Assembly (NCBI GenBank): GCA_000091205.1
Contig: AP006502.2
Length of the DNA: 64,000 nt
Strand: one strand, 5' to 3'
Origin: Cyanidioschyzon merolae
Taxonomy: Eukaryota
Below, piece after piece: positions 1 through 63,089 of the stretch. Position numbers and translations under genes: made by a program. Below the pieces are notes generated by a model, which was not told the origin of the DNA, did no database searches, and worked only from the letters and a program-made list of their open reading frames with translations. Position 1 is the first letter of the stretch. Each line of letters opens with the position of its first letter.

Positions 1-238
1 GAACCGACACGTCAACGCCGCCGTCAATATCGGAAGAAATGTGGTACTAAAGAAGAGACCCAAGGAGCTGGCGCGAACCAACTTTGTGCGGCGACCTCTT
101 ATAATCGAAGTTCACAAACAGAGGCTTAAGCCGATAGCAGGCGTCGGGTTGAAATATGCTGGGAAGCATCTGCGGGTAGTTGTTAATTTACCCACGGTCG
201 CGACACTTTTTCGCTCCGTCGAGCAGTACCAACGATAG
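1..238 (+). mobile_element. TnpB/Fanzor-like nuclease C-terminal remnant (RuvC-III region), truncated by window start
   Basis: Reading frame from nt 2 gives N-R-H-V-N-A-A-V-N-I-G-R-N-V-V-L-K-K-R-P-K-E-L-A-R-T-N-F-V-R-R-P-L. It is collinear with E-F-V-K-R-D-L-N-A-A-I-N-I-R-R-C-A-L-L-K-T-R-P-A-E-L-T-R-S-K-F-M-G-Q-P-L at 12506-12718 and with the 48845-49219 copy. The catalytic Asp is replaced by His (RH instead of RD). Confidence 0.45.
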
Positions 239-9885: not shown

Positions 9886-11966
9886 GGCACGCTTCCAGCG
9901 CAACAGAGAACCGCCCGCGTATTGACTGCTACGAAGTTCTTTGGCCGTGGAACGCCCGCGGTACTTAAACACAATTTGGCCCCACCGCTGCGTGGAATCG
10001 AGTGCTTGTCCAAAGCGAGGAGCAAGCGATCGAAATTATTATGCAACGTACACTAAAGATCTTAGGCGAGATCCCTGTAACATAGGTTCTTTATTGGATA
10101 GCGAAGGAGGACTGCATTCCTCCTTCTGGTAAGTCATACGACAGTACTCGGATAGCTGAGGAACCCTGAAAGAGAAAAATACGTGCGCTCAGCGCCAAAA
10201 ACCGGATTCTCATAAACAGTTTTGGTTTTACAGTAGAAAACGACCCGTTGATCACAGTGCACAAAGCAAAAGTGACGACGGTAGCCACCAGGGGCGTCTC
10301 TTTTTCTCGACAGCTTGTTCATATAGTTCTGCAAGCACTAGGATATGGTCGCAAAAAGGGTCCAATTTCATGCACGGCCATCTTCCACTGAAATCGCAAG
10401 TACAGATTTCCTGGAACGAAGCGATTGGTTTGAAGCACGGAGAAGTCGCTTTGTTTTTTCAGTCGATTAGACGTCCTTCCGATGAAATGGTCGAAGCCAA
10501 GGTAGGTTCTCGCGGAGCAGAGAACACGTTCTATGTACAATAGATCTCGAGGAGAACGAAGACGTCATCATCGGTTCTAGCTGCAGTGGAGTCATTTGGC
10601 GGCCTCAGTTTCGCTCGCAGAGAATGCTCGTCCACGAGTGCCGACTTTATCGAATCGTTGAAGACTTTTTCCCTGATGTCTGACAATGCCCTTCTGTTTG
10701 AAAATGCGATATTTCACCATTCCCTTTGTGTTCGACGTTTTCCAGACTCTATCGGGGAGTAGAACTGCTTCTCATACCTCCGAAAGCTCAGTGTTTCAAC
10801 CGCATCGAAAGAGTGTTTGCTATCGTGATATGTAATGATCGCTCCTCTGAGAGAATCCCTGAAGTACTTTGCACGGTGACACCAGGACATGCGTCGTTGT
10901 TGTTCCGCAAGTGCTTCTCCCTCTGAAAAGATCCTCATCTATGGGCAAAAAGAAGTGAGTTCATTTTCAAAAATAGAAAAATGAAGGAAAGTTATGGATA
11001 TGTAAGTCGAAGATACTGGAGGCCCGGCGTTGCCGGGATCCAACAAACGAAAAGAGTGCCGAGCCCAGAGGAACAGGAAAAGACGAAGAAGCAAAAGGGG
11101 CGCTAGATGTCGAGAGCGACACGATAGGGGACACTACGACGAGATTGTACTGAAAGCCTATCTTGTACGCCATATCAAGGATTCGCACTATCAAAAATTA
11201 AAAAAGCCATCAGAAACCGTAGCCCGTCCAACTCCAGATTCGTCGACGAAGAGACATCACCCAGGAGCACGAATGGAGATTCTGTGATCCGTGCTGTTCT
11301 GGGGCTTATCAACCCAACAGAAAATGTATCAGAGATATAAAATGGTGCTATCCCCTCATCCTGCTCTATTTCGTGTTCCTGAACCGAGAACTACAACGCA
11401 AGAAGGAGATGGAGCCGTGTGGGAAAAAATCAAGAGTCGTTGGAACGGAAGGCTTTCCTAATGGATAAGCGCTTCAACGTCGTTCCGTTATGCAACATCA
11501 AGTGGCACGTTGTGGCAACCATCGCAAGCGTCCTTTACGGCATCATGGAGATCTGTCCGGAGTTCGATGTAAGCAGGGATGAATTTACGGGTGAAAACAG
11601 GGAAACTCTTTGGAAGCGCACCTTCGATTTCAAACGTCTCAACACGAGCAAGTGAAAGGTATGCTCGGGGACGATCGAAAGCGATGGGGTATCTAAATGT
11701 GGACACTATTGGCACTTTAAATTGGATCGTTCTATTTTGTCTTCGGCTTCGCCCCCGCCGAAACGTGAAGACACAAGGAGATGGATCCTGCAACGCAGGA
11801 GGTGCAGGAGAACGACTTTGTCATCGGCGTGGAGCCCTGAAATACGAATGTCATGACCATCGCTGCTCCCATGCGTGAGGAAGATGGCACTGACGGCAAC
11901 TTACGACAAAAAGACATCCGTCTTTTAAAGTTCTCAAGAACGAGATATTATTGAGAATCGGGAATT

Positions 11967-12760
11967 ATGAATGCATGGAAAAAAAGTGAGGCATGGAGTG
12001 CAGGAGTGAAGGAGCATCGGGAAGCGATCAGCCGGGTGACGAGCCGCGGAGCGCACTTTCAAACTTCTCGTGAATTCATGAAAATTCGCGCTGCTCATGT
12101 CGCGGAGCTGTGGAGAGAGTATACAAAGTCCCGGTGGGCTCGTCAGCATATGAATCTGTATTGCTGGAAACAGCGTGCATTCGCAAAATTCTTCAATGCG
12201 TTGTGCGCTCTCACAGTTGATAAGAGTCAAAGGCTCGAAATAGCATAAACGCAGGGCCCTGTGTGCCCAGAAAAAGGAGCACACAAGCTTTGTCGAAATG
12301 AACATTCATGGATGGCACCCAGTGTCTTGTTCCGGTACGGATAGATGAATTCCGAACGTCATACGTGCACCATGAGCTGGGGTGTACAATTCAGAAGGTC
12401 GAGATGGAGCGAAGGCAGAGGAGCCCTGATGAGATAGAAAAGTACGGAGAGCTGAAAGATCATCGAACGGCGCAGAGGGCGCGAGTTCGAGGAATCCCTG
12501 CGTGAATGAGTTCCACCGGAGGCAATAAGCCAATGGAGTTCGTGAAGCGAGACTTAAACGCCGCGATCAATATCAGAAGATGTGCCCTGCTGAAGACGAG
12601 ACCTGCAGAGCTGACGCGATCCAAGTTTATGGGGCAGCCCCTTATGCCCGATACGTGCAGGAAGCAGCTGAAGCTGATGGCAGGGAGCCGATCAGAAAAG
12701 GCCGGGAGGCGCCTGTGAGGGGGTGTGAATTTACCCCACATGGTCCTGGGACATTTTTTC
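11967..12760 (+). mobile_element. TnpB/Fanzor-like nuclease C-terminal half, frameshifted (pseudogene); 3' end abuts inverted-repeat arm
   Basis: Three consecutive plus-strand ORFs in different frames carry the TnpB motifs in order. The first is W-A-R-Q-H-M-N-L-Y-C-W-K (the W...L.YK motif). The second is V-P-V-R-I-D-E-F-R-T-S-Y-V-H-H-E-L-G-C (the E/TSxxC motif). The third is E-F-V-K-R-D-L-N-A-A-I-N-I-R-R-C (RuvC-III). The zinc-ribbon cysteines are mostly lost. About 45 bp after the stop is still homologous to the 49220-49305 copy. Confidence 0.45.
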
Positions 12761-12789
12761 TTTTACTGAGGATACTATATTTGTTTCAA

Positions 12790-14118
12790 ATTAAAATGGT
12801 CCGTTAAGCTGCGCGCACTGTTTCTGCACTTCGATTTTTCCGAACACTTTTCGATATACAGCCTCATCATCCAATGTACTGCGACCGGGGGCTCCGCTTC
12901 ATCTGTTCTTTAGGGCTCTCTGTCGTCATCTCGAAGTGTCGACTCCGGCTCCGTGCCGCTGGAGCTCGTTCAGCCACACCAACTGGGATGGTTCGCGGCG
13001 CCCCACGGGCAAGAGTTCGTGAAAGTACTGATATCACAACTTAATTTTTACTTAAGAGCTTCCACTCTATTTCTTTCCCCGACTTGCGCCATGCTCAAAT
13101 CACGCACTCTCCGAATTTCGATCTCTCTGTTGCAAGGCAACTCGTGGGTTCAGCACTGAGCGCCGTTCCAGTGACGATGAAAACAACTCGACGTCGTTCC
13201 TCGACGGCTTGTTCACAAGCCCAGGCCGCGAGTTCACTGGACTTGTCATCCCAAATAATCGACTCTGTCCGAAGGATGAAAACTCCTCTCTTTGTGGCAA
13301 TGGATGAAATGGCACCCAACGGCAGCATGACACCTCTCGAGTGTTCTCCGGGGGGCCCCCGAATCTTCTGTCTGCGTGGAAAAGAATCTTGTTCTAAGAC
13401 TTGAATCATCGCAGCGATCGCCTCCAGTGGACAGTGCGTCTCAGTTGTGCACGAGGACGGAACAGACTGATCGAAATATCTGGATGTGTTCCCAATCTTG
13501 GGCTTTTTTCAGGTACTTATTTCAACATGGAAAGCATCGCGCACCACCAATCCTCGACTGAAATGGAACAGCGAGCGCTTGCGCGTGCAGCTGCCAGAGT
13601 GCTCGCGTGCGGGACTACTCAGGGAAAGCGCGTGAGCGTAGCGCACGGCACAGGGCGCAGGACCGGAGGGCATCTACGGGAGCCGCCGGCGCTCGTCAAG
13701 CGCATTCACCGGGCGACAAAGCAAGCGCGCATGTACCACGGGGCGGCGCTTGGCGGATTAGGCGTTGTGGACATTCGTGAGGACCTGAGCGCAGTCACCT
13801 ACCACCGCTATGTGGGCGCATTAAAGTTGAACAGAAAAAGGGTGAAAATGCGAAGCAAAGGCTTGATTGCAACCTTCGTCTGTACATGAAATACGTAGAA
13901 AACAAGAGGAAGCGGCGAAATCGTGGCTGTAACGTTGCCATCAACATCCCTCGACTGCTGGCAACAGAGCTGGACGGATAGGAGAGCACGACGTATTGAA
14001 GGCTGGAGATAAGAGCGGGGAGAAGAACCAGTCACAGAAAAAGCCCGCGCTGGCTGGCGTTGGTGGCATCGGGAAGAGATCCGAAGCTGGGTTGATTCGC
14101 CCTCGTCAGCCGAGTGCA
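12790..14118. repeat. Inverted repeat A, left arm (~1.33 kb), partner 17338-18666
   Basis: Every ORF in 12953-14120 has a mirror ORF of identical translation in 17335-18502, with coordinate sums of 31455-31456. Examples are 13401-13889(+) = 17566-18054(-) and 13095-13409(-) = 18046-18360(+). DNA identity runs from attaaaatggtccgttaagctgcgcgcactg to ccgagtgc. Confidence 0.9.
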
Positions 14119-14266
14119 ATCTTTCAATTTTTTGTCTCGCATGGTAAGGGGCTGTGTGGAGCGGCGAAGAAATGAGAGACGCTTCGTGACGCGCCCCGTT
14201 GCCTACAGTGCTAGGCGAATTATGCAGCCGCATACGCGCGATTTGTGAGCAAACATGCCCGTACAT
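13808..14266 (-). pseudogene. Divergent TnpB/Fanzor-like C-terminal remnant (RDVDGNVTATI sub-family) at inner edge of IR-A left arm
   Basis: The ORF reads ...HSADEGESTQLRISSRCHQRQ...LSVQLCCQQSRDVDGNVTATISPLPLVFYVFHVQ. The pattern D-E-x-x-S-T then C-H...C-C then R-D-x-D-x-N-V-T-A-T-I parallels the E-x-x-T-S / Cys / DxDxNAAxNI order of the TnpB C-terminus. Identical mirror copy at 17204-17647(+). A third, more decayed copy lies at 29555-29700. Confidence 0.3.
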
Positions 14267-17203: not shown

Positions 17204-17647
17204 TTGCTAACTAGGCGAAGATTGTTTTTCGTAGAGGGTTGGCTGAAATTAGTCAAGTTGCAAAATTTTCGAAGATTTTTACCTTTTCAGAGATGGTTTC
17301 CGTCACTTCACCAGTGTAAGCCAACAAATGAACGATCGCACTCGGCTGACGAGGGCGAATCAACCCAGCTTCGGATCTCTTCCCGATGCCACCAACGCCA
17401 GCCAGCGCGGGCTTTTTCTGTGACTGGTTCTTCTCCCCGCTCTTATCTCCAGCCTTCAATACGTCGTGCTCTCCTATCCGTCCAGCTCTGTTGCCAGCAG
17501 TCGAGGGATGTTGATGGCAACGTTACAGCCACGATTTCGCCGCTTCCTCTTGTTTTCTACGTATTTCATGTACAGACGAAGGTTGCAATCAAGCCTTTGC
17601 TTCGCATTTTCACCCTTTTTCTGTTCAACTTTAATGCGCCCACATAG
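17204..17647 (+). pseudogene. Mirror copy of divergent TnpB/Fanzor-like remnant at inner edge of IR-A right arm
   Basis: Identical C-terminal 100 aa to the 13808-14266(-) ORF. The unique N-terminal part EGWLKLVKLQNF resembles the TnpB W...L.YK block. Confidence 0.3.
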
Positions 17648-18666
17648 CGGTGGTAGGTGACTGCGCTCAGGTCCTCACGAATGTCCACAACGCCTAATCC
17701 GCCAAGCGCCGCCCCGTGGTACATGCGCGCTTGCTTTGTCGCCCGGTGAATGCGCTTGACGAGCGCCGGCGGCTCCCGTAGATGCCCTCCGGTCCTGCGC
17801 CCTGTGCCGTGCGCTACGCTCACGCGCTTTCCCTGAGTAGTCCCGCACGCGAGCACTCTGGCAGCTGCACGCGCAAGCGCTCGCTGTTCCATTTCAGTCG
17901 AGGATTGGTGGTGCGCGATGCTTTCCATGTTGAAATAAGTACCTGAAAAAAGCCCAAGATTGGGAACACATCCAGATATTTCGATCAGTCTGTTCCGTCC
18001 TCGTGCACAACTGAGACGCACTGTCCACTGGAGGCGATCGCTGCGATGATTCAAGTCTTAGAACAAGATTCTTTTCCACGCAGACAGAAGATTCGGGGGC
18101 CCCCCGGAGAACACTCGAGAGGTGTCATGCTGCCGTTGGGTGCCATTTCATCCATTGCCACAAAGAGAGGAGTTTTCATCCTTCGGACAGAGTCGATTAT
18201 TTGGGATGACAAGTCCAGTGAACTCGCGGCCTGGGCTTGTGAACAAGCCGTCGAGGAACGACGTCGAGTTGTTTTCATCGTCACTGGAACGGCGCTCAGT
18301 GCTGAACCCACGAGTTGCCTTGCAACAGAGAGATCGAAATTCGGAGAGTGCGTGATTTGAGCATGGCGCAAGTCGGGGAAAGAAATAGAGTGGAAGCTCT
18401 TAAGTAAAAATTAAGTTGTGATATCAGTACTTTCACGAACTCTTGCCCGTGGGGCGCCGCGAACCATCCCAGTTGGTGTGGCTGAACGAGCTCCAGCGGC
18501 ACGGAGCCGGAGTCGACACTTCGAGATGACGACAGAGAGCCCTAAAGAACAGATGAAGCGGAGCCCCCGGTCGCAGTACATTGGATGATGAGGCTGTATA
18601 TCGAAAAGTGTTCGGAAAAATCGAAGTGCAGAAACAGTGCGCGCAGCTCAATGGACCATTTTAATC
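17338..18666. repeat. Inverted repeat A, right arm
   Basis: Reverse complement of 12790-14118, near-identical. See the left-arm evidence. Confidence 0.9.
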
Positions 18667-19147: not shown

Positions 19148-19837
19148 TACTTTAGCGTTTCAGGAGAATGGATTGACTGAGTATTGAATGATTCCCTGGG
19201 AAGTTAACTCGACTCAAAGATGCTGAACGCTTCCAATGCACAAAACATTTCCGGACTTTGATCGAGGCGCTCACTTCTCGTTGCGGAGAATATTTGAGCG
19301 AATTTTTGCTGGTAGGAGCACACCCGAGCAAGTCTCTCACCTAGCTTTGCACTCCCATTTGACGTCTGCTCAGCTTGCTGGGGATCATCTGGTGAATCAG
19401 GCTCGTTTCACTTGTTTCCCCAGCAGCAATTTCAGTTTGCATTCTGCGCTCGTAATAAGTTTACGCCGCCTTGAATTCAATGGTGGTACTCGTAGAGAAT
19501 CATCTCTGCAATCAGTTCTCGCGCTCGTAGAAGGAACAGAAGAGCATCTTTGTACGCTATAACTCCAAGATCGTCACTGTCTACCTTCGAAACACAAGGC
19601 ATATCTGCCATTTCTTTTTTTGACTCCACTGAAGAAAAATGGCGAATGAACGCTTCCTGCATCCGTACAATCGACTGCATTGCGTTCCCCAGCGCAGGTC
19701 AACTAACCTCTAACGAAGATCGTCTTCAAGAGCCAGTTGGACTTTCAGGTCCTCTCTGGATCTAACCTCCACAGCATGCCACTCAGATGGATACGGTGCT
19801 CCAACCGTCGCTATCGGTTGTAACCCCGTCATTCCAA

Positions 19838-21152
19838 ACGTTCGTGTGCCTCCTGACGCCCATCATGCTTCACTCTAGTATAAAGCCCTCGAAAATTTGC
19901 ACACTATCATCTGGATTCTGTTCAACTCTTTCATTCCGCTCTCTTGATTTTGAGATAAGGCAACCGCGCGATGTATTTCTCTTCATTTATCTTGGACGGT
20001 TGAAAATCAGCATCGTTAGTTGAGTCAAGTTTAAGTTTCACAAAGTGCATGCAGCCTGGTCTTCCGTCGGTCTCCATTCTCCCTGCGTACTCCTTACGAT
20101 TTCCTGCCCTGTAAGGCGAAACGTCGAATCAGCTCTACCCATGATCTTCGGAAAGCTGTTCGAGTGACCCGTGCTCGCTGCCAGAGACCGGCCGTAGCCC
20201 ACTGAGTGGAACGTATAGTACAGAGGAGTCTGCTGTGATTAGTGGGCGTTGAAGTGACGAACGAGGGCCGCTTCGAGCAGACGCTTACGGAGTCGAGTGC
20301 ACCCGCATTGGTGGACGGAGTCTGCTTCGCTCTCGAGGGCTCTCTTGAGGCAAATATAATGGGGCGAGAGATGCAAGCAAGGCAGGTACCCCGTTAACGC
20401 CATGGTATGGATAAGACTTGTGCCGATCCTCTCGAGGGCTCTTTTGAGGCGAATATAATGGGGCGCGGAATGCAAGCAAGGCAGGTATCCCGTTGACACC
20501 ATCGTATGGATAAGACTTGTGCCGATCCTCTCGAGGGCTCTCTCGACGCGAATATAGTGGTGCGCGAATTGCAAGCAAGGCAGGTATCCCGTTGACGCCA
20601 TCGTATGGATAGGACGTGTGGCGATCCGAGTCCGAGATCCACTCGATAGGCGCGGGCGATCTGACGCGAGTCTCGCTCTCGGTGCGATATCGCTTCCGGC
20701 GTCGTTGGCACCTCGATCCCATCTGTCACCATCAGCTTGTCATTTGCCTCCTTCGGCACTCCAAGAAACCGTTCTATCAGTCACCACTTTTTTGGGCCAG
20801 TAAGGTGGCTAAAACGGTTCTAACTTCCAAACGGTGAACCGATTGAAGCACTCGAGATTGTCTCGCGTATCGTTTCATTTTTCAGGTTGATTCGATATTT
20901 TTCTCTTTCGTCATAGATATTCCGATTGCTGATGTGATTTCATGACGTACAAATGTTTTCTCGCAAGCGTGCGTGCAGATCTTGTATACTGCGATCAGGC
21001 CGTGTTTCACGTTCTGTCGCGAACGCTGGTAGAAGAACGAAGGATTTGTACAAAAATCCGTGTGGAATGAGGGCAGCTCGCAATGCGCATCCGGAACTTG
21101 CACGAGCATTTGCATGACGAGCTGTGCCATGGCAAGAGAAGCTATACTAGCC
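19838..21152. repeat. Inverted repeat B, left arm (~1.3 kb), partner 37853-39179
   Basis: ORFs 19787-20023(+), 20239-20601(-), 20285-20722(-), 20394-20759(-), 20616-20837(+) and the 3' part of 20882-21295(-) have near-identical mirror ORFs at 38982-39236(-), 38404-38967(+), 38283-38720(+), 38246-38611(+), 38202-38387(-) and 37874-38122(+). Confidence 0.9.
20331..20640. repeat. Tandem repeat, 99-bp unit x ~3.1 (mirror copy 38365-38674)
   Basis: The tctcgagggc landmark recurs at 20331, 20430 and 20529. Units are ~90% identical. The translated repeat STGYLPCLHSAPHYIRLKRALERIGTSLIHTM(V/A) appears in three frames. Confidence 0.85.
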
Positions 21153-22682
21153 TTCCTCGGGTAAAAGGCTACACAATATCTGATGGGGTCGTGCATGTCA
21201 CATGTAGGAAAATTCTTCCTGTTAAAATATTTTAGTCGGTTGGCTTCGCAGAGATTCCAGACCAAACGCTCCGACCAATTGTCTTTCCTGTGCATTCTTG
21301 TCTTACACTTGGTAGAATCTTTCTCTCCATTTTCTAGCAGTATTTCGCCTTCTCTTGCGCTCAGCTTGCTGGCTTCATTGTCGTCGGTAAACTCAACATC
21401 CGTTTTTCCGCCTGATTCATACGTACCGGATGGACGGTGAGATCAAGGCTCGCTTATTGTGAGTAAATAAGATTGCATCTTTTTTCCCACATATAACTTT
21501 ACATCATCTGTTCCCTAGCGACTTTGCCCATGGAATGGGATGTGCGTTTTGGTTCCCTCGCGCGCTCGCAAAGAGAAGCAATAGTTTGTTTCAGGACAAT
21601 AGAAAGAAGAGAATGATTTGTCTACGAGCGTTTTCACGAGCACGATAGACTCGTTCTCGCAGATGGCGTCTCACTATGTGAGACGAACATGCCCTTTGTG
21701 TGATAGAAATTCGCGTTTCAGTGCGAGATCGATAATATACAGTTAATCGTGCGACAATCTCACAATGTGGCGTAATTTTTTTGCTCATCCGTTTCTTTTC
21801 AATATCGTTCATATTAACGGTACATAAACTTCACATCACTTCTTTTCTTTGGTAGCTTTTCGTAGAGAACGTAGGGAATGGAATGGATCGATGGGGGAAG
21901 ACGCGTGTAGGTACAGTTTCGCAAATTCAGGCATGAGTGCATGACGTTCAGAACAAGGGCTAAACGAAGGGAAGCTCATCAACCTTTGAACCATAGAGCG
22001 ACTGACAGACGTAATGCCATTTTTCGCAGGCTCGTAGTGACAGCATACCCTCTCCCGAAACCTCTCTCCAGTTTGCAGGATGCATTTCATTTGTTGGTTA
22101 CGAGCGAGAAAATCAAAAATAAACAAAAAGAATGCGCTAGTCAATGTGCAACAGAACTCACTGTTCTGCGCACAACCACTCTGAGCGTAACGAACACGAT
22201 TCAATCGTGTAAAGCGTGTTTTCCGGGTGCTCCCACCATCGCACGATCTCATACCAAGTTACTTGAGGAGCGTACTTAATAGATCGTTTCCCCATACCCA
22301 GACACTGTCGTATGTCACAACGGCATACCAGTGCGCTTAGGAGTCAACTGACGACAAGTCAGGGAGTATACGCGAAGGGAGCCACACCGAGTGGCTCAAA
22401 ACCGGCTCCCGCGCCAATGCGCGTAGCTCTTGTACAATGGCTGCATAACCGCTTTTCATAGAAAACCAAAATGAAACCTAAGGCGTGTTGCAGCGACCAG
22501 CAAATCATCAATACTTTTTGGGCCGATTGGCGAGGGCGACTCCATCGACCGTTACACGAATCTCCGAGGCGGCGGATCCGCGACGCCTGCGGCTGCGATT
22601 TTATCTTCTAAATAATTTCGCATCCGCACAGTTCTAGCTCACAGTTGCCGATAGTAGTTTCCGGCTCCTTAGTTTCGTTTAG

Positions 22683-29700: not shown

Positions 29701-31327
29701 AGTGACATATGGCTGCAGTCAGGTATTCAAGCATTTCCGACATACCTCATTCTTCTGCGCAAGGTACCCTACGGCGCGTGCAGGCATGGTTCATCGCTCC
29801 ATCATGCCATTGACGGGCATAGAAGATGCCCTCGGTGCTCTCTTCCGTTTCCGCGTATGGTGCCGTGCGCTACGAGCATGGGGGATCCTCCCTGTGAGAA
29901 CTCTGTTCTCTGGATACGCAAGCGCGCACTGTTCCATAAGATAGAGGATTCATGGAACACAATATCGTACATGATGGAACGCGTACTCGAAGGAATATCC
30001 GGGCTGGATATCACTCTGCGAAATTTCGATACGACTAAGCTACCCTCGTGCAAAATGTCACGTACTGCCCACTGCAAGCGGTCGCCGCGTGGACTGACGT
30101 CCAAGTCCGAGACCTTTTTCCATGTAAACAAAAGAGACGAGAAAAGCAACGAGCAGATATTGAGTGCCATTTCTTCGATACCGAAGAAGAGAGGAGGACG
30201 TATTTTCGAATCGAATGGTTTCTTTGATGTGGCAAGTTTAGTGGACTTTTGGAATGAGCTTGCGAAAAAAGTCGTCTAGGGACAGCGTCGAGTGTTTTAC
30301 GTCTTCATTCTAATGGTGCGAGTTGCTGCGCCCCGGGTCGGCTCGAAGCACAGAGGTCCAAAACGTGAGGAATATGTGAATTGAGCATGATAAGTGTGAG
30401 AAAAGGAGAGAGGCGGAGGTTTGTACCCATGAACTAGATGATGATGACGGCTATTCTACGAACCTGAATTCGACGGTATCGCGAAGGATCTTAATTACGG
30501 TGACATCCCGGTTTCCAGCAGCAAGGAGCGGATAGAGCTACTCCGAAACGACGACCGGGAATCCAAATACTCCGAATCAATCCATAAGCCCCTACTGCGG
30601 GACCTGGAGTTCCGAAGCCGCACATCCATAAATGGTCGAAAACATCGCAAGTCAGGAACAGAGCGGGCAGTTCAACTTTTCATTTTAATCTGACAGGGGC
30701 TAGGCCAGTCTCTGGATGAATCACAAATAGCAAGGAGACATCCTAGCAAGAGGAGAGCATCATTTGCAGAAAGTTCTGCGAAGATATTAAGGCGCGCATG
30801 CAGAAGTCCCCAGATATCCGGAACGTACACGAGCACCAGTTCGTCCACGAAGCGTTCATGACGAATCCTGGTCAGTTTGGAATATGCAAAGAAATATTCT
30901 AGCACACGCCAATCACTCAATGCGTTTTGCACCCAATTCAGCCTCTGGAACTCACGCCCTCGTTGGACACCCCACAGACATTCTGTCTCCATGCGACATC
31001 CGCAGATGCGTCAGCAACGACTCAGCGAGCGTCCGCAGTAGGCTCAATGCCACCTGCATCGCTGGATCTTTCAAGTTGCCGTTGTTTAGGACCAATGAGC
31101 CGGCCTCCAAGGCTGCGTGAATCGCGAGCACAGGGGAACAGTCCCTATGAGTTTCCGCGCAAACCGCAGTCGGTGTACGAGCGTACTTGAAGATGATTAC
31201 CATTCATGAGAAGACCCTCATGCAACGCTCCTCTGTGGCGACAGTAGACATGACAGCTCCTCGCATGACTGCATCAGAACCGGGTATATTCTTTGGCAGC
31301 GCCTTACCCTAGTATGTACCCAGGTCT

Positions 31328-34371: not shown

Positions 34372-34555
34372 CGCTCAGTGAAACCCAGTATCTCAACTAT
34401 GCCAGCCGCGTCTTGTTCTCTGCTGGAATGGGACGGATCCGAGCTTGCGCGGCATCAATAGCAACGTGACAGTATGTCCCTGGACCACGGAGGATGGAAT
34501 CGCACCGTCATGCGCCTCATCATTCTTTATAGCCTTTAAGCTCAGTTGTGTTCGA

Positions 34556-35307
34556 CCCTTGGATGAGTATAATGAAATGGTATTTCGCTGGTTATAGAAG
34601 ATGCGTTCGAAGAGTGCTAATTTTCAAAACTAAAAAATCGAGGGGAAAGGTAAGGACACGGAAGTCGGGGATCCTGGAGTCCCAGTATCGCCAGGTGCCG
34701 GAAAAGAAACAAAAAATCTTCTTCTCGTCGACAATGGATCCAAGAAGAGCAAGTGACAATGAAGAAGAGGAGGGTAGATAGGCGAGAAAAGGTGCTTGCG
34801 CGGTGGGGCCACGGCGAGATTGTAGTGGCGCCGATGGGTCGTCTTCTAAGAATCAATGCAAAGGTGACTTCAATCAGCTGTAGAGCATTCAAGGAGTTTG
34901 TGAACCGCGACTTCAACACCACCATCAATGTCAGATGGAGCGTGATGCGGAAGTCTCGGTTCATGGACTCCATGATTGGTTGCCTCTGGTTGAAATCATC
35001 AATTCAAGGATTACTAGAACTCGTCTCATCGGCGCCCCTACAATCTCGCCGTGGCCCCACCGCGCAAGCACCTTTTCTCGCCTATCTACCCTCCTCTTCT
35101 TCATTGTCACTTGCTCTTCTTGGATCCATTGTCGACGAGAAGAAGATTTTTTGTTTCTTTTCCGGCACCTGGCGATACTGGGACTCCAGGATCCCCGACT
35201 TCCGTGTCCTTACCTTTCCCCTCGATTTTTTAGTTTTGAAAATTAGCACTCTTCGAACGCATCTTCTATAACCAGCGAAATACCATTTCATTATACTCAT
35301 CCAAGGG
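34556..35307. repeat. Foldback palindrome built from a TnpB/Fanzor-like 3' fragment
   Basis: ORF 34548-34781(+) = 35082-35318(-), 34630-34812(-) = 35051-35233(+), and the C-terminus of 34617-34973(-) = the C-terminus of 34935-35246(+). The arms (34556-34842 and 35021-35307) encode G-I-L-E-S-Q...F-S-S-T-M-D-P-R-R-A-S-D-N-E-E-E-E-G, homologous to the 48858-48990 copy. The 178-bp spacer (34843-35020) encodes A-F-K-E-F-V-N-R-D-F-N-T-T-I-N-V-R. Confidence 0.6.
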
Positions 35308-35488
35308 TGGAACACCACTGAGGTGAGAGACTATAATCTAACTCTCAGTTACCGTGATTGCTCTCATGCCACAAATGGATAGACCTGGAGAAGCCCGTAC
35401 TACAGTTGGACGGCGCACGAATCTACCAACTCAGCACCCGCGCTGTTCCGATTTGTGCTGACGAATTGGGCGGGAAAGATGAAACAGT

Positions 35489-36094: not shown

Positions 36095-37852
36095 CTTTGT
36101 TTTTCCCGTCGCCGCTATCTGGAAAGAGTCACTCAGGGCAACCTCTTGCTGGCGGCGGCCCGATTTTTGCGTCACATGATGGGCAACTAGCGAGCCGGTC
36201 AAGAGTTGAATCACAGCAACGATTGCCTGTTATTTAATGAGTGGTACATATAGCCTCAACTGCTTGGTATAACCTTTCCATTGTTTCGGAGAATCAGGTT
36301 CGTTCAACGCAGGCTCGGTTCCGGATAATTTCACAGATCAGAATCGAGCAGATAGCATCATGAATTTTCTTCCACAAAATGACTGGCATTAGGATCATTA
36401 TAACCGACGCAAAACATAAACTCCGTTAATCCTATCTCAAAATCGTAGCAGTGAGTTCCGGAAACCTTGGCTTGAGTACCATTGTTCTGAATGTGCTTTT
36501 TCTCATGGATATGAAACAAACTAAGACGTCCTGTAAATTAGAGAAATGTAGCGGCAAGCCTCTATTCTCTGACTTGTCGCTCACGAGAAAAAATACCTTT
36601 CATGTGTCATTCAGTCATTACTACGTTCAGCAGCTGGATGAATCGCCTTTCTTGCAGCGCTTGTCCTGAACTTCGTGCATCCAAAACAGAATGTCTGAAT
36701 GTTTCTCTATGCGACCGTTTCTCCATGTATCTATTCCACCACAAGCGTTCTCGAGGTGATATCTTCACAAACGTTGCAGGATGTCAGCCTTCGGTAGCAC
36801 TGATACAAGCGATGATGAAGAGGCATGCGTGGGCAAAAATAGAAGAGCCCTGCTATTGGAAACACTCGCAAGTTGTACAAAACATTATTGATTTCGAACT
36901 GAAACGCAAACGGCTTTTGCAGAAAAGTCTGGTGCTCGCCTCACTGGATTAGACATCATCCGGGAAAAACGGTAAACCTATATAAGGAAAATGATAGAGG
37001 GGCGAACAACTGTTCGAAAAGAAGGCAAAAGCGAGCATTAAGAGAAAATCAGCCCCAGCAGAAATGCAATCGTGTTATTGCCCTCTAATCAGCAATCGAA
37101 CTGGATCGTTGGATACCTCACCCAGCGTGGTAACACTCTTCATGATCTGCTCTTCGCACCCTCTTCTGTCATTCTCCGAGACAACTTCGCCGTACATCTT
37201 TGAAAAGCGAGAGGAGAGAACGATACTCAGATTGGCACTGAGCTACTCTTCGTGCCAGGATATACCCCTGGTTCAATGCAGGAGAGGCGTATATTTAAGT
37301 GCCAGACGCGGTCTTAACGGACATGGATCCATGGAAGAATCATTAGCATCCATGTCTTTGTTCGTTGAGAAATCGTTCTCTGCCATCGCAAGCCTTAAAC
37401 TGATATGTTCCTTTTCCTACCGTGTGCGGGAGGGAGCGGAGTGGCGCTTCGGATTGTAACACGTGCTCGCTACGAAGGAAGTGACCAAAATGTACTCGAG
37501 AAATAAAAAGTACATATCCAGGAAAAGTGACCTTCGCACTGATCATCCCCGAAATGCGTCCGATCCGCGAGGAATAGACCTGGTATGGAGTATAGCAATA
37601 GCATGGAAATCGCCATACCCAGCAAGGGGAAAATACGAGGAAAGAGAAGGGGATGCATCAACCAGACAAAGTAGAGAATTGTACCCCGAAACAAGCACAA
37701 ATAACGACAGGACAAAAACTATAGAAGTGGAAAGATCAGTCCAAAATCGCTGCAAAGGCATAAACACTAATATACATGAACAGGAAGAGAATTCCAGAAA
37801 CTGAAATTCGGAGCACCAGTAAGGATCATATAACTTCGTTTTCGAGGAGGGC

Positions 37853-39179
37853 TCTCATAGCTTTTCTCTTACCGTGGCACAGCTCGTCATGCAAATGCTC
37901 GTGCAAGTTCCGGATGCGCATTGCGAGCTGCCCTCATTCCACACGGATTTTTGGACAAATCCTTCGTTCTTCTACCAGCGTTCGCGACAGAACGTGAAAC
38001 ACGGCCTGATCGCAGTATACAAGATCTGCACGCACGCTTGCGAGAAAACATTTGTACGTCATGAAATCACATCAGCAATCGGAATATCCATGACGAAAGA
38101 GAAAAATATCGAATCAACCTGAAAAATGAAACGATACGCGAGACAATCTCGAGTGCTTCAATCGGTTCACCGTTTGGAAGTTAGAACCGTTTTAACCTAC
38201 CTTACTGGCCTAAAAAAGTGGTGACTGATAGAACGGTTTCTTGGAGTGCCGAAGGAGGCAAATGACAAGCTGATGGTGACAGATGGGATCGAGGTGCCAA
38301 CGACGCCGGAAGCGATATCGCACCGAGAGCGAGACTCGCGTCAGATCGCCCGCGCCTATCGAGTGGATCTCGGACTCGGATCGCCACACGTCCTATCCAT
38401 ACGATGGCGTCAACGGGATACCTGCCTTGCTTGCGATTCGCGCACCACTATATTCGCGTCGAGAGAGCCCTCGAGAGGATCGGCACAAGTCTTATCCATA
38501 CGATGGTGTCAACGGGATACCTGCCTTGCTTGCATTCCGCGCCCCATTATATTCGCCTCAAAAGAGCCCTCGAGAGGATCGGCACAAGTCTTATCCATAC
38601 CATGGCGTTAACGGGGTACCTGCCTTGCTTGCATCTCTCGCCCCATTATATTTGCCTCAAGGGAGCCCTCGAGAGCGAAGCAGACTCCGTCCACCAATGC
38701 GGGTGCACTCGACTCCGTAAGCGTCTGTTCGAAGCGGCCCTCATTCGTCACTTCAACGCCCACTTATCACTGCAGACTCCTCTGTACTATACGTTCCACT
38801 CAGTGGGCTACGGCCGGTCTCTGGCAGCGAGCACGGGTCACTCGAACAGCTTTCCGAAGATCATGGGTAGAGCTGATTCGACGTTTCGCCTTACAGGGCA
38901 GGAAATCGTAAGGAGTACGCAGGGAGAATGGAGACCGACGGAAGACCAGGCTGCATGCACTTTGTGAAACTTAAACTTGACTCAACTAACGATGCTGATT
39001 TTCAACCGTCCAAGATAAATGAAGAGAAACACATCGCGCGGTTGCCTTATCTCAAAATCAAGAGAGCGGAATGAAAGAGTTGAACAGAATCCAGATGATA
39101 GTGTGCAAATTTTCGAGGGCTTTATACTAGAGTGAAGCATGATGGGCGTCAGGAGGCACACGAACGTTTGGAATGACGG
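37853..39179. repeat. Inverted repeat B, right arm
   Basis: Reverse complement of 19838-21152. Includes the 99-bp tandem array at 38365-38674. Confidence 0.9.
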
Positions 39180-41445
39180 CGTCAGGGCCCAAATCAATGC
39201 CTTTAGCACCGCATCGAAGAGACTAATGCTTTGCACGGTTATTCAGAGAGTCCATCAGCGTCCAACAGGCGCATGCGGACGATCCTTGGAAGGTGCACAT
39301 GAGACAGCGCTAGCGTGATCATCAGTACCGATTATAGGGAAGCATGAAACACGCATTAACCAACTTTTTAAATGAATTCGAAAAGCAAGTATCTGGTAAG
39401 TCGCGTCGTTTGGTGGAAACCTACGAAGTTGTACAAGCTATAGAACGCAAAAACTGTACTTGCTCTCCTTCGACGAGGGCGTACAACGAGTGCAAGATTC
39501 GATTCTGAAAGATTCACTCCGATGCATTCAGAAAGACATACAGTCTTCACGAGCACGGGTGCGCGTTGAATCTGGTAGACACGAAAAAGAGAAACTGAGA
39601 CGGATGCGCTTGCCGATGTACAGCAAGCTGAACGATCCTCAGATCGATAGAAAATCGAGCGTGAGAGGTTTTCTACGGTTTGAATCCACTCGCAACCATG
39701 CGCACAAGCAGTTTCCGAACGGAGACTCGAATGCTTCGATCAACATCCGGCGACCTTGTGCTTCCGGAGCGTCCAGTGGCCTTTTGCAGAAGGGTCCTGC
39801 ATTGGTATCCCCTAGTACTCATTGTGGGCATTGGGATGAGACGCGGAAGACTTGCGGTTAAACAAAATTCGATGGCCTGGACACATGGGATTCGATTCTC
39901 CCACTGAGCGAGGCAAATGTATGGCGCAGTTCAGCAGTATGGAATGGCAGGTGCGTAGAATATACAGAACGCAAGAGATATCCTTGCGCAATCGGTGAAC
40001 GATAACTATGCTGGATTATTCGATATTGCTGATTATACTGAACGCCTCGCTTGATGTGGCAGGAACTTTACAATTTTGGAAACGCACTCGGGCTTTCGTA
40101 TGCTGCGCTTTGCTTGGATCCAAAAATTGTAAGCACTGATAAATGAGACTGCTCTCTCGAGGTGCGTCGATCAAATGCGCATCTACGAGCATGCTCCAGG
40201 TATCTCCTCTCGCCCCGGAACGGCACAGCTCTGATTTTTAGCAGCGCGATTTACGTGGAGATCAGGTTTTGTTTCCGGGCTCGTAGTGCTCTGCGAAATG
40301 TCCTCTTACGTAAGGTTTTAAATGCTATTCAGAGGGAGCAGCTTCCATGAGAAGCGATGCGCGTAGACTCTCATGGACATGTTCGTAGCCTTTTTTAATG
40401 ACGCAGAATCCCATTGGACGAGATCCATTGGGAAGAGAGAGTCCACTAGCTCATTTCGTGGACCAAAACGAGCTTTCTTTTTGATAAATGCAGACAGAGC
40501 TGCATAGCGTACGTTGTGCGAGGCGCTGCCCTGTTTTTGAGCCACTGGGTGAGGCATCGGTGCTTCATTTACGCTTTTATCGCAAAGACATCAACAAACG
40601 ATATTTCACACAACTTTTGATTCAGTCCACATCAGGAGAAGACGACCAGTTTGCTCATTCGCGCATTTCGATGACTGGCCAACTTCAGCGGCTGGCGTCC
40701 ACACGCGACCACCGACCGTTTCACTGGCAGGTTTTCTACAATGAGACCATCCCTTGGAGAGGACAACACCCGTCGGACTTCAGCGTAAGGGCGTTTGCTC
40801 TGTAAGCCATTCGCACCTTGCCCCATGCTCACTGCAAGGAGCAACGTCCCAACCTAATATGCAGTGTATCAATTTTCATTTGACCAGCACTTTGCGTACC
40901 CGTGCATTAAACCTTCCAAACGTCCTTTTGAAATTGTAGTTTTGATACAGAGAGCAAGACTCGCGAACACGCGAAAGCTGTATATAAAAAATTGTACCGA
41001 GTAACGCTATCCGTGGTGCATCAAATTTCCAATTTTTCCAGAAACATTTCCCTGCAAAACGCATATTGTCGGTGAGAGGGTGATAAATCTCACCAGAGTC
41101 CCTCGGACACGAGAATACTGCTGTTATCCCCTTGGAAAGGGTTTCAAACTACCCTAGCAAGGTCAGCTTTCCATCTGGTCCACATCAGTTCTGCTATCGG
41201 GCGTGGCAGCACGGTCAGTCTAATAACTGCAGAGATTCCCGAACTACATTCTTCTGTCATCTGCTTCCCTTGTATCGGATTTATATATGGACTGGAATCA
41301 AGTGCCCCAATGATCACTCGATCGAACTCGCCCATGCCGACCGCATCAAGGCGCTGTGTTTGCGCGCCCTGGGGGCCTGCATTTGGTAGAAGCGCGGCAC
41401 CTTGAAAACTCAGCTTCGCGCGTTTTTGCTCAAGGCTTTCGACTG

Positions 41446-61966: not shown

Positions 61967-63089
61967 AGCACACGGCTACCTGGGTAGTCACCTGTCCAGT
62001 CGATCGACCAACTAGACAGATAGCTGCCGAAGCTGGCGGCTATCCAGACAAACAGCAACAACGTCAGTCGGCTAACGATGCAGACGGCTTTCGAGGCGGA
62101 CGGAAATCCGAGCGAAACAGAAGTGCAGCACTGAACTATGGGCACTGTTCGAGCCTTTCGAATTTTCCCCCTACTCTTGTTGACATGGTGAGTCGCGCGG
62201 TTCGAAGTATACCAATAGCGGTTTATGGATTTGTCTCAATTTTTAAGATTCTCGGTCATCTTTTCGGAATGGCTGCTTCTACGCCTTGATGGTGGATTTC
62301 GTACCGGCTCCGGAGTCAACGTGGTTCTCATCGCTATCGAACGAAGGATTCGAAAAATAACCGACACCGTCGTCCTATTCATACGAACAAGCGTCCAATC
62401 TTCTCTTTTCTTTACGTGTGGCATGCTCACATAGCACATTCTTAAAAATTTCGATCTTCCGTTCCAAGCCGACTTGTGGACGCAGCAATGCGTGCCGCTG
62501 CATTGATAAGTGAGAAATTTGAAGTCGCCGCTTGAGGACTCGCTCATAAGCTCATGCGGAAAGTTCACTGGACCTGGGGCGTCACATAATAGATCCACTC
62601 GAAACCCAGATCCTCTACTCTCCGTAGCCTACGACGAAACGGGATTCCACACCAGCATGACGCATCTGATAGAGCATGCTCCCAGAGGCTTCAGTCCTTC
62701 TGTCTGCATGGAAAATGGTCTTGAACTCGGATTTGAGTCACTGCAGGGATCGCTCTTAGTGGATATTGGGTTACACCTTGCCAGAAAGGAGCGAAAATGG
62801 ATCAGAATCTCTCGACTTTCTCTCCAAATTGAATTTTTTGTTCGATACTTTTTACATCATGAACAGCAGCGCGTGCCACAACCTATCTAACGAATGGAAC
62901 AGCGTACGCTTGCATTTGCAGAGGACAGAGTACTCGCGAAAGGGATAGCGCTGAAGAAGTCTGTGATCGTTGGGCACGGCACCAGGCTCCGAAACGGAGG
63001 AGGGCATCGAGGGGAGCCCCTGCACCCTCCAAGGACATGTACTGAGCGATGAAGCAGGCGCTCATGCACCACAAGGCAGTGCTCGGAGC

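Follow-up and report, generated by a model that had tools for sequence, protein, structure and literature searches.

The Fanzor1 family of Cyanidioschyzon merolae, CMe-1A, was published by Bao & Jurka (2013, Mobile DNA 4:12; PMC3627910), who described about 150 copies of an element of about 3 kb, about 80% identical to its consensus and without TIRs; the class of the transposon was left unsettled, and neither a 3' tail nor any RNA is mentioned in that account. For SpuFz1, a conserved block of 75-80 nt that extends from the stop codon to the right end of the element is the scaffold of the guide RNA, the guide itself reaches 14-15 nt into the flank, and "ghost" loci of ~550 nt that have no ORF keep the element ends (Saito et al. 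2023). The omega-RNA of Fanzor1 consists of a stem-loop SL1 of 7 bp and a variable SL2, followed by the guide (Xu et al. 2024). Fanzor fRNAs adjoin the right end. We found no description in the literature of a Fanzor RNA from C. merolae.

The window analysed here is a stretch of 64,000 nt from C. merolae 10D, contig AP006502.2, and it contains several decayed copies of an element with a gene of this kind (Table 1). Four of its ORFs match proteins of strain 10D at 100% identity, all encoded on a chromosome of 1.62 Mb. We think it probable, at roughly 60%, that positions 12719-12769 and their twin at 49267-49317 are the last 51 nt of an old and degenerate CMe-1 subfamily, here called "B", and that these nucleotides have omega-RNA scaffold ancestry, the latter by analogy with the systems described above.

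Table 1. Features of the element copies in the window, with the basis of each assignment
Feature	Position	Strand	Basis or remark
Copy 1, Fanzor1-like pseudogene body	10953-12718	+	three-frame translation, protein identity, collinear BLAST to loci L001/L003/L004
TGA common to copies 1 and 2	12716-12718; 49264-49266	+	after ...GRRL/RRRL
Tail of copy 1, 51 nt, candidate remnant of omega-RNA scaffold	12719-12769	+	71% identity to 49267-49317, z = 13; six-copy boundary
SL1-like hairpin GGGGUG/UACCCC (6-bp stem, loop of 6 nt), close behind the TGA	12720-12737	+	p = 0.02 vs shuffles of the 28-nt 5' half
Flank 3' of the copy-1 right end	12770-12789	+	unrelated to the flanks of other copies; guide position if the tail was transcribed as an omega-RNA
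Copy 2, ~600-bp internally deleted "ghost"-like element	48718-49317	+	sequence comparison with copy 1
Tail of copy 2, 51 nt	49267-49317	+	TGA directly 5'; flank from 49318
Copy 3, truncated by the window edge to its 3' end	1-222	+	tail 176-222, ends ...CCGTCGA
Copies 4a and 4b, short-form, inverted, without tails	34527-35335	.	sequence comparison

The gene that precedes the copy-1 tail is a frameshifted relic related to the Fanzor1 family CMe-1A. Its three-frame translation reveals several frameshifts and an in-frame TGA at 12503-12505; compared with the younger subfamily, about 400 nt are missing internally, and the left end is uncertain, at about 10870-10950. The translation reads DEFRTS...NRDLNAAINIRRC, with the motifs DEFRTS...NRDLNAAINI present, and is 55-59% identical to the proteins P0001-P0066 and 50-59% identical to a family with more than 472 relatives in metagenomes. 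The metagenomes with these relatives also contain the copy-1 window locus. RuvC-I, RuvC-II and RuvC-III motifs of Fanzor1 type follow one another in the expected order (the D in GxDPG, [DE]EF/Y-R-T-S, a zinc-finger-like segment and RD-x-NAA-x-NI); the family consensus is GADPGNTNI ... VDEFRTSYTHHELGC ... NRDFNAAINIRRC, copy 1 has IDEFRTSYVHHELGC ... KRDLNAAINIRRC, and the residues of the C4 zinc finger have degenerated to H,H,C,C. An AF2 model of P0001, with a mean pLDDT of 52.8 and values of 65-88 in the core only (residues ~110-290), finds SpuFz1 (8GKH) as its best Foldseek match (E = 1.8e-5, probability 1.00, 189 columns), followed by GtFz1 (9CER, E = 1.1e-3) and then by PpFz1 and Cas12 proteins. 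This fold search alone gave a match, as phmmer and hmmsearch/profile searches against PDB sequences returned none. Pfam matched no piece of the window and yielded nothing usable for the homologues, its hits elsewhere being PF07282, below threshold, on P0076, a distant homologue (E = 0.0095), and, for neighbours, DUF8286.

An intact nuclease ORF is absent from all copies in the window: copy 1 can be read through only with several changes of frame and contains in-frame stops, copy 2 carries an internal deletion and a frameshift, copy 3 runs off the edge of the window, and copies 4a and 4b are truncated. Copies 1 and 2 are dead relics today, the former a frameshifted pseudogene and the latter an internally deleted derivative that retains both ends, with a 5' part corresponding to about copy-1 positions 10953-11020 and a 3' part corresponding to about 12469-12769. 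Copies 4a and 4b are joined head-to-head, with the junction near 34942 falling within the RuvC-III "NRDFN" motif, and their existence means that the short form is itself multi-copy. At the left end, the similarity core begins near CACCTGGGAGATC, upstream of which at least five alternative modules occur, each common to groups of copies; no conserved left-flank motif or TAM was seen among the copies compared. The window copies are ~71% identical in nucleotide sequence to the younger subfamily, A, and ~66% to each other, and they seem better named a diverged sister subfamily ("B") than CMe-1A proper, a family that they match in genome and in kind of element. Subfamily B is apparently rarer than A. 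No empty site was found for the copy-1 locus: eight further contigs all carry the insertion and are ~99.7% identical (99.5-99.8%), so that they give no information on constraint or on the exact ends.

Where, then, does the element end? The original prediction was that copies 1 and 2 stay alignable past their stop codons, and they do. Self-BLAST aligns 12469-12769 with 49018-49317 at 71.2% identity over 306 columns (E = 9e-33), the motif string quoted in the prediction is present in both copies, and the alignment score of the two tails lies at z = +13 relative to shuffles, versus z = 1.4 for the first 100 nt of the flanks and z = -0.4 for the next 326/348 nt. Several details of that prediction need correction. 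Similarity ceases at ...TTTTACTGA, on the last A of ...ttttactga at 12769 and 49317, rather than at 12760 and 49305, and the shared block starts at 12469 and 49018; each tail is exactly 51 nt long, rather than extending for 45-85 bp; the stop codons, taken to differ, are one TGA common to both copies, the earlier stop of copy 2 (49217-49219) being the product of a 1-nt deletion; and the unrelated repeats, placed directly at the boundary, begin 20 nt beyond it in the case of IR-A (12790) and 42 nt beyond it in the case of repeat C (49360).

The same right boundary, YTGA/TCGA, is common to six copies, namely copies 1, 2 and 3 and three from metagenome loci beyond the window (L047(-), L011 and L067). 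Its last two bases, GA, are invariant, as is a T-run at -15 to -12, and over positions +1 to +30 the six flanks have a pairwise identity of ~0.23, which is random. The boundary ...YTGA is strongly supported as the right end of the element: common descent from one mobile element accounts for the likeness of the copies, and that likeness stops at ...YTGA because the right end of the element lies there. Thus the transposon right end that had been predicted is upheld by six independent copies, by a gene related to Fanzor1 and by a published Fanzor1 family in the same genome. The six copies also fit the layout of an omega-RNA locus, in which a conserved stretch, located at the 3' end of the nuclease ORF or beyond it, runs exactly to the right end and gives way to a copy-specific flank. 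A segmental duplication of copies 1 and 2 together with their flanks is unneeded to account for the boundary, since the four other copies confirm it; the flanks of copies 1 and 2 have no similarity for 326/348 nt and then share collinear patches of another repeat family.

It had been argued that conservation that ignores the reading frame speaks for a scaffold over coding sequence, an argument that is weak for pseudogenes with a derived TGA and with a tail that is open in frame up to the boundary TGA (in copies 1 and 2 and L067). At the site of the TGA common to copies 1 and 2, the other four copies have CGG (copy 3), CGA, CGC or TGT, the TGA probably having arisen later as a nonsense mutation. 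Since every copy is a pseudogene under neutral decay, any part of the element stays alignable and the similarity of the tails needs no selection; the tail is less conserved than the CDS (47% vs 26% divergence).

Does the tail fold as a scaffold should? Here the predicted omega-RNA scaffold stands on its position and on analogy, but it gains nothing from folding stability or a consensus structure in the B tails. MFE z-scores for the six copies are +0.5, -2.2, -1.6, 0.0, -0.2 and +1.7, with no significant folding stability, RNAalifold finds no consensus structure among them, and a search of Rfam gave no family for the window or for three related loci. The covariation that had been proposed as a check gives no support in the six B tails compared, where a hairpin in the 5' half is the one element of structure. 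Counterparts of the copy-1 hairpin are present in copy 3, L047m and L011, and copy 2 has two small hairpins, at 49263-49282 and 49295-49313 (z = -2.2). The 5'-half hairpin reaches a nominal p of 0.05 or less in four of the six copies, with stems that differ in sequence and measure 6-7 bp in copies 1, 2 and 3 and L047m, shortening to 5 bp in L011 and to 4 bp in L067, so that 4-5 of the six have such a stem close behind the stop; its register is lost in a MAFFT alignment of the six tails. The 3' half is unstructured, with no consistent or convincing SL2. On the strength of position and analogy, a role of the B tail as an omega-RNA scaffold is plausible.

The younger and abundant sister subfamily A has a core of ~2.5 kb and a variable 5' part, its copies are ~80-90% alike, a hairpin (GCGCTC-GGT-GAGCGC) lies near its left core, and a long palindrome lies at its right end. 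Several of these younger copies are only 60-190 nt upstream of a host gene on the same strand. The A tail, 65 nt long, forms two stem-loops, SL1, with 5-9 bp and the stop codon within it, and SL2, with 10-19 bp; it has MFE z-scores of -1.9 to -5.3 and markedly better folding in the sense than in the antisense orientation (-18.1 vs -12.5 kcal/mol, p = 1.7e-8). RNAalifold on a MAFFT alignment of 47 A tails missed the terminal hairpin, which occurs as two variants in different registers, and a covariance model was used instead. In the resulting model-fitted alignment of 52 copies, 84.4% of cells are paired, compared with 77.7% in shuffles (0/500) and 32-52% when the structure is slid, and two-sided changes occur at 19 of 27 pairs, compared with 12.8 in shuffles (0/500). 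An unfitted MAFFT alignment of 19 copies gives 86% paired cells, against 31-50% when slid, and a covariation score of 0.149 against 0.118, a level reached by 4 of 500 shuffles and weaker than in the fitted alignment. Measured against the A consensus, divergence rises from 0.09-0.12 in the CDS through 0.18-0.25 in the tail to 0.53-0.60 in the flank. The structure of the A tail is strand-specific and covarying, as expected for a Fanzor1 omega-RNA. The covariation check thus succeeds for the related younger subfamily, but the A tail is different in sequence and its covariance model does not detect the window tails, and consequently the structural evidence is not transferable to B by homology.

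Set beside the described systems, the element resembles each of them in part. With CMe-1A it shares the genome, the protein family, many decayed copies and the absence of TIRs and of a transposase gene, and the published description fits subfamily A; the window copies differ in being more diverged (55-59% amino acid identity to A) and in having a tail of 51 instead of 65 nt. SpuFz1 (structures 8GKH, 9CEU-9CEZ) is the solved protein closest in fold to the core of the nuclease, the flank is variable beyond its right end as well, its ghosts of ~550 nt are comparable to copy 2, at ~600 bp, and to copies 4a and 4b, and its two-stem-loop layout resembles the A tail. However, Spu-1 elements carry inverted repeats of 30 nt and, at the left flank, a CA/CATA motif, whereas CMe-1 is without TIRs, and the RNA of SpuFz1 has been seen by small-RNA-seq and cryo-EM, whereas the RNA here is a candidate, in window tails with no convincing SL2. 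The omega-RNA (reRNA) of TnpB in IS200/IS605 elements such as ISDra2 offers a parallel in a scaffold that adjoins or overlaps the 3' end of the nuclease ORF and extends as far as the right end, in a flank that serves as guide, and in hairpins in place of inverted repeats; these elements, though, are prokaryotic and have a Y1 TnpA transposase as partner and a defined left-flank TAM, neither of which was found for the window element. Helitrons and Helitron2 likewise lack TIRs and have a 3' palindromic hairpin with compensatory changes (as in A) and Fanzor1 as frequent cargo (Bao & Jurka 2013, PMC3627910), but the element has neither a CTRR 3' terminus nor a RepHel gene, the A hairpin extends right up to the terminus of the element where a Helitron hairpin would be 10-30 nt further in, and the B tails have no such hairpin.

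These resemblances raise the question of what else the terminal 51 nt could be. One answer is a cis-acting DNA end without any RNA role, recognised by a transposase, perhaps as a single-stranded hairpin in the manner of IS200/IS605 or Helitron2. The lack of TIRs and the unsettled class of CMe-1A would suit such an end, as would the left-core hairpin and right-end palindrome of the younger subfamily, the retention of both ends by short, internally deleted copies, and the precedent of Helitrons, which often carry Fanzor1 genes and, in Helitron2, have hairpins with compensatory changes at both ends (Bao & Jurka 2013, PMC3627910). Nevertheless, we consider this reading unlikely: in the A hairpins, which contain many G.U pairs, the sense strand folds far better than the antisense, and this fits RNA, or else single-stranded DNA of the top strand only; the B tail is without a strong hairpin; and a transposase gene is not seen in the element. 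Moreover, both roles coexist in TnpB systems, so an omega-RNA stays compatible with a DNA end. Very improbable, and without specific support, is a 3' UTR of the nuclease whose U-rich run would supply termination or polyadenylation signals at the edge of the element. Such an element does require 3'-end signals of its own, the T-run near the boundary is invariant in the six copies, and the 60-190 nt that separate several younger copies from a same-strand host gene are in keeping with this idea; yet a guide RNA occupies the same region in characterised Fanzor loci, and a strand-specific, covarying double stem-loop such as that of the A tail is atypical of a eukaryotic poly(A) signal.

Two further readings turn on the TGA common to copies 1 and 2. 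If the 51 nt were an ancestral C-terminal coding extension of the B nuclease, 16 codons long, the boundary TGA would be the true stop and the TGA at 12716 and 49264 a later nonsense mutation. The codons in the other four copies agree with this, CGA to TGA being a CpG transition, and the tails of copies 1 and 2 and L067 are 51 nt long with no internal stop and with an in-frame terminal TGA; moreover, subfamily-A homologues run eight codons past RRL, and their read-through frame, as seen in P0010, closes with a TGA that lies 5 nt short of the right end. We hold a coding extension to be quite unlikely, as divergence by codon position is 0.50/0.54/0.38 in the tail, least at the third position and with no coding signature, versus 0.22/0.22/0.34 in RuvC-III, an in-frame length has a prior of 1 in 3, and 16 stop-free codons are expected by chance with a probability of ~0.46 per copy, so that the pattern may have arisen by chance. 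Such an extension would also not be exclusive of a scaffold, since in TnpB systems the omega-RNA as a rule shares sequence with the 3' end of the ORF. An intron, finally, would have its 5' splice site, CTG/GTGAG, at the "stop" and a branch-point-like TACTGA at its end; copy 2 indeed reads GTGAGTGAGT, both tails end TTTTACTGA(T), and the window contains a real intron, in the ValRS gene at 46879-47045 (GTAAGT...CTAAC...TAG). We reject it: the GTGAG donor is confined to copies 1 and 2, with GCGGGT, GCGAGT, GTGTGT and GCGCCT in the other four, it is also missing in subfamily A (CTGCACGTC), and nothing is conserved beyond the boundary, where the flanks are random and hold no conserved 3' exon.

Returning to the scaffold remnant that we favour, the known systems suggest how an active ancestor may have worked. 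Its terminal stretch, transcribed as one RNA with the nuclease ORF's 3' end, would have formed the 3' part of an omega-RNA scaffold, made up of an SL1-like hairpin that followed the ORF directly or overlapped its end and of a U-rich linker. By analogy with SpuFz1 and TnpB, the transcript would have continued ~15-20 nt into the flanking DNA, which would have served as guide. Any present RNA function of the window copies could only be in trans, as "ghost" guide donors for intact nucleases of the younger subfamily, and is unlikely because the B and A tails differ in sequence. More broadly, and tentatively, for we doubt it somewhat, the CMe-1 lineage may encode a very compact omega-RNA located between or over the stop codon and a right end without TIRs, of 65 nt with two G.U-rich stem-loops in A and of ~51 nt in B, with short ORF-less copies such as that at 48718-49317 acting now or once as "ghost" guide donors.

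For the most part, the finding re-discovers a known architecture in dead copies, as Fanzor1 has been known in C. merolae since 2013 and the rule for the placement of the scaffold since 2023. What is new is the exact right-end boundary (...YTGA) of a diverged subfamily, the evidence for short ORF-less derivatives, and the 65-nt A tail, whose two stem-loops are strand-specific and covarying and make it an omega-RNA candidate for a Fanzor from an organism of 42-45 °C and pH 2. If the RNA were confirmed, it would provide a compact scaffold and would aid in classifying the transposon. Should the compact omega-RNA prove true, C. merolae, a thermoacidophile, would have a red-algal, heat-adapted Fanzor1 system with a scaffold among the shortest known, and the hairpin ends would suggest single-strand movement of an IS200/IS605-like or Helitron2-like kind.

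On the evidence of a structure model, the gene that the conserved tail adjoins is a Fanzor1 relic, and the Fanzor-like label of the original prediction was apt. Three-frame translation of copy 1, the relic whose right end lies at 12769, reveals a decayed ORF containing IDEFRTSYVHHELGC and KRDLNAAINIRRC and broken by frameshifts and an in-frame TGA. A stitched 254-aa sequence from this gene retrieved 80 homologues at 50–59% identity, and a scan of metagenome contigs confirmed more than 472 relatives, with four contigs (L005–L008) representing the very locus of the window copy. Pfam and PDB-chain sequence searches returned nothing informative on the gene's identity; the assignment is made because an AlphaFold model of one homologue, P0001 (mean pLDDT 52.8; core 65–88), best matches SpuFz1 (8GKH, E 1.8e-5), then GtFz1, PpFz1 and Cas12 proteins. 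Four ORFs in the window encode proteins identical to those of C. merolae 10D, from a chromosome of 1,621,617 bp. A Fanzor1 family of C. merolae, CMe-1A, has already been described, with ~150 copies of ~3 kb that are ~80% identical to their consensus, without TIRs, with TSDs undetermined and of unknown class (Bao & Jurka 2013; PMC3627910).

Once duplicates were removed, 55 distinct 3′ ends were left. Forty-eight belong to a young subfamily, A, that agrees with CMe-1A as described and whose protein ends in ...GRRLHVSWRRFV; six make up an old subfamily, B, namely window copies 1, 2 and 3 and the copies at metagenome loci L047 (minus strand), L011 and L067, which are ~66% identical to one another in the coding part. 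The A protein is ~810 aa long in the family consensus and carries acidic repeats (...KDEEKKEADPATQEVEDNDLVV...), variable in number, immediately before the RuvC-I motif GADPGNTN; nearly all of the 48 A copies examined have stops or frameshifts.

In a self-comparison of the window, copies 1 and 2 align at 71.2% identity over 306 columns (E 9e-33), and further partial relatives were found. The two had been described as having differing stop codons. Read directly from the DNA, both carry the same TGA, after ...GRRL or RRRL, and copy 2 stops earlier on account of a 1-nt deletion; the difference is thus a secondary frameshift. Past the shared TGA lie exactly 51 nt in each copy, terminating ...TTTTACTGA. 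These tails are 71% identical, with an alignment score 13 SD above shuffles, and the flanks give z=1.4 for the first 100 nt and z=-0.4 for the next 326/348 nt. An alignable tail with an abrupt end is therefore confirmed, with corrected coordinates: the end points 12760 and 49305 fell 9–12 nt short, and the repeats thought to begin directly at the boundary start 20 and 42 nt past it. Copy 2 is an internally deleted element of ~600 bp, in which ~240 bp from the 5′ part and ~300 bp from the 3′ part survive. The same short architecture is seen in copies 4a and 4b, so derivatives lacking the ORF were mobile in their own right; they resemble the S. punctatus "ghost" loci of roughly 550 nt.

The likeness ends at the same point in all six B copies, where the final GA is invariant, five of the copies have T as the third-last base, and positions -15 to -12 are a T-run; beyond this point (+1 to +30), pairwise identity is ~0.23, as in random sequence. 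That this conserved boundary, anticipated at ttttactga, is the element's right end is strongly supported by the sequence comparison. No empty site was found at the copy-1 locus, the insertion being present in all eight further contigs, which are ~99.7% identical (99.5–99.8%) and too close for measuring constraint. The left end and TAM were not definable from the copies compared. Among A copies, similarity starts near CACCTGGGAGATC. A small hairpin (GCGCTC-GGT-GAGCGC) lies ahead of it, and upstream of the hairpin are at least five alternative modules, each common to several copies; these may correspond to the relationship of CMe-1A with the 635-bp TE-N2_CMe that has been published. For several younger CMe-1A-like copies, the start codon of a host gene on the same strand follows only 60–190 nt after the end of the copy, a spacing suggestive of insertion into 5′ intergenic DNA or promoters.

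What, then, is the tail? An intron is excluded, as GTGAG occurs in copies 1 and 2 only, with zero conservation downstream; the genuine intron of the window's valyl-tRNA synthetase gene, by contrast, reads GTAAGT...CTAAC...TGTAG, and its exons rejoin as ...DTW/FSSGLWPFSTMGWP. Introns are very few in C. merolae. A coding tail is another alternative. At the TGA site, the other four B copies read CGG, CGA, CGC and TGT, which would make the TGA probably a derived CpG-type nonsense mutation, and in copies 1 and 2 and at L067 the 51 nt form an open frame closing on the boundary TGA; thus, the ancestral ORF may have run to the element's very end. Bacterial tnpB genes overlap their omega-RNA. Divergence by codon position (0.50/0.54/0.38 in the tail vs 0.22/0.22/0.34 in the RuvC-III region) counts against real coding constraint, and within the element conservation is lowest in the tail. 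In subfamily A, the ORF frame past TAG is open (...RRSTFERR) up to a TGA that lies 5 nt short of the right end; A copies with a mutated stop appear as predicted longer proteins, e.g. P0010, and TTGAT is present in the terminal sequence of A variant 1. Similarity that ignores the reading frame, which had been taken as a sign of RNA, is expected for any part of the transposon because all copies are pseudogenes, and is not itself a mark of an RNA gene.

By analogy, an omega-RNA scaffold is a reasonable reading of the window tails. In SpuFz1, the scaffold is the 75–80 nt between stop and right end, and transcripts extend 14–15 nt into the variable flank; other Fanzor RNAs also adjoin the right end, and the Fanzor1 layout is a 7-bp stem-loop (SL1), a variable stem-loop (SL2) and the guide. 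The position of the tail thus argues for a scaffold, as had been proposed. Structure gives this part of the proposal little backing in subfamily B: RNAalifold, applied to the six copies as a covariation check, predicts none in the tail, and MFE z-scores are +0.5, -2.2, -1.6, 0.0, -0.2 and +1.7. When the halves of the tail are taken separately, four of the six copies have a hairpin in the 5′ 28 nt (nominal p<=0.05), with differing stems (GGGGUG/UACCCC, GGGUAG/UUACCC, GAGUGGG/CCCGCUC, GGCUG/CAGCC), and the 3′ half is without structure. Rfam holds no matching family for the window or three related loci.

Sister subfamily A provides good structural evidence for the scaffold reading. Its 65-nt tail folds as an SL1 that takes in the stop codon, plus a long SL2 (z -1.9 to -5.3), and the terminal region folds better in sense than in antisense (-18.1 vs -12.5 kcal/mol, 45 copies, p=1.7e-8) because of many G.U pairs. 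In an alignment of 52 copies made with the covariance model, and hence biased towards it, 84.4% of cells are paired vs 77.7% when shuffled (0/500) and 32–52% when partners are slid, and 19 of 27 pairs show two-sided changes vs 12.8 expected; for 19 copies in an alignment not fitted to the model, 86% of cells are paired vs 31–50% when slid. Divergence from consensus is 0.09–0.12 in the CDS, 0.18–0.25 in the tail and 0.53–0.60 in the flank. The window tails go undetected by the A model, and in nhmmer the homology of A with B stops at ...GGAGGCGTCTG; therefore, this evidence supports a habit of the lineage rather than the window tail sequence itself.

IR-A and direct repeat C include members of another dispersed family of repeats, for which Pfam gives no match. 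One such repeat, in the same orientation, follows ~330–350 nt downstream of each of copies 1 and 2 (collinear patches ~70%), and the family also occurs near Fanzor copies in L011, L012, L021, L022 and L024. Copies 4a and 4b, each ~69% identical to copy 2, meet head-to-head within the RuvC-III "NRDFN" motif as a near-palindrome of ~800 bp, and the arrangement resembles a product of fold-back or break repair.

Coordinates of features in the window and, where a locus is named, in related metagenome loci
Feature	Location	Detail
Aligned block, copies 1 and 2	12469-12769; 49018-49317	
Copy 2	about 48718-49317	
Partial relatives	1-99; 34950-35281	the latter approximate, an inverted pair
In-frame TGA, copy 1	12503	
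Shared TGA	12716-12718; 49264-49266	copies 1; 2
Early stop, copy 2	49217-49219	
51-nt tail	12719-12769; 49267-49317	copies 1; 2
Copies 4a; 4b	34582-34935 (+); 35281-34950 (-)	pair within 34527-35335, meeting near 34942
IR-A	12790-14137; 17319-18665	99.5% duplicates
Direct repeat C	49360-50216; 53492-54348	99.5% duplicates
Listed with IR-A, repeat C and their repeat family	62390-63086; 29784-29945	
Valyl-tRNA synthetase gene	45202-48405	
Spliceosomal intron	46879-47045	~167 nt, canonical
Inverted repeat pair	19718-21159; 37843-39284	1.4 kb, 96%, 17 kb apart
Tandem 99-bp units in its arms	20330-20627; 38378-38675	~three per arm, 84-90% alike
A upstream modules	L047 2150-2200; L049 920-970; L066 2130-2175; L048 2050-2100; L003 1560-1610	examples
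Copies ending near host genes	L001 3437-3514; L004 2344-2460; L003 4077-4264	hydrolase; TACC-like protein; PI3/PI4 kinase
A tail with open frame	L052 1653-1717	also other A tails
A protein	L065 2351-4687	

The window copies are dead and diverged, and their tails are candidate omega-RNA scaffold remnants. The feature is part of a transposon lineage already known from C. merolae, and the architecture of the locus is a known one too.
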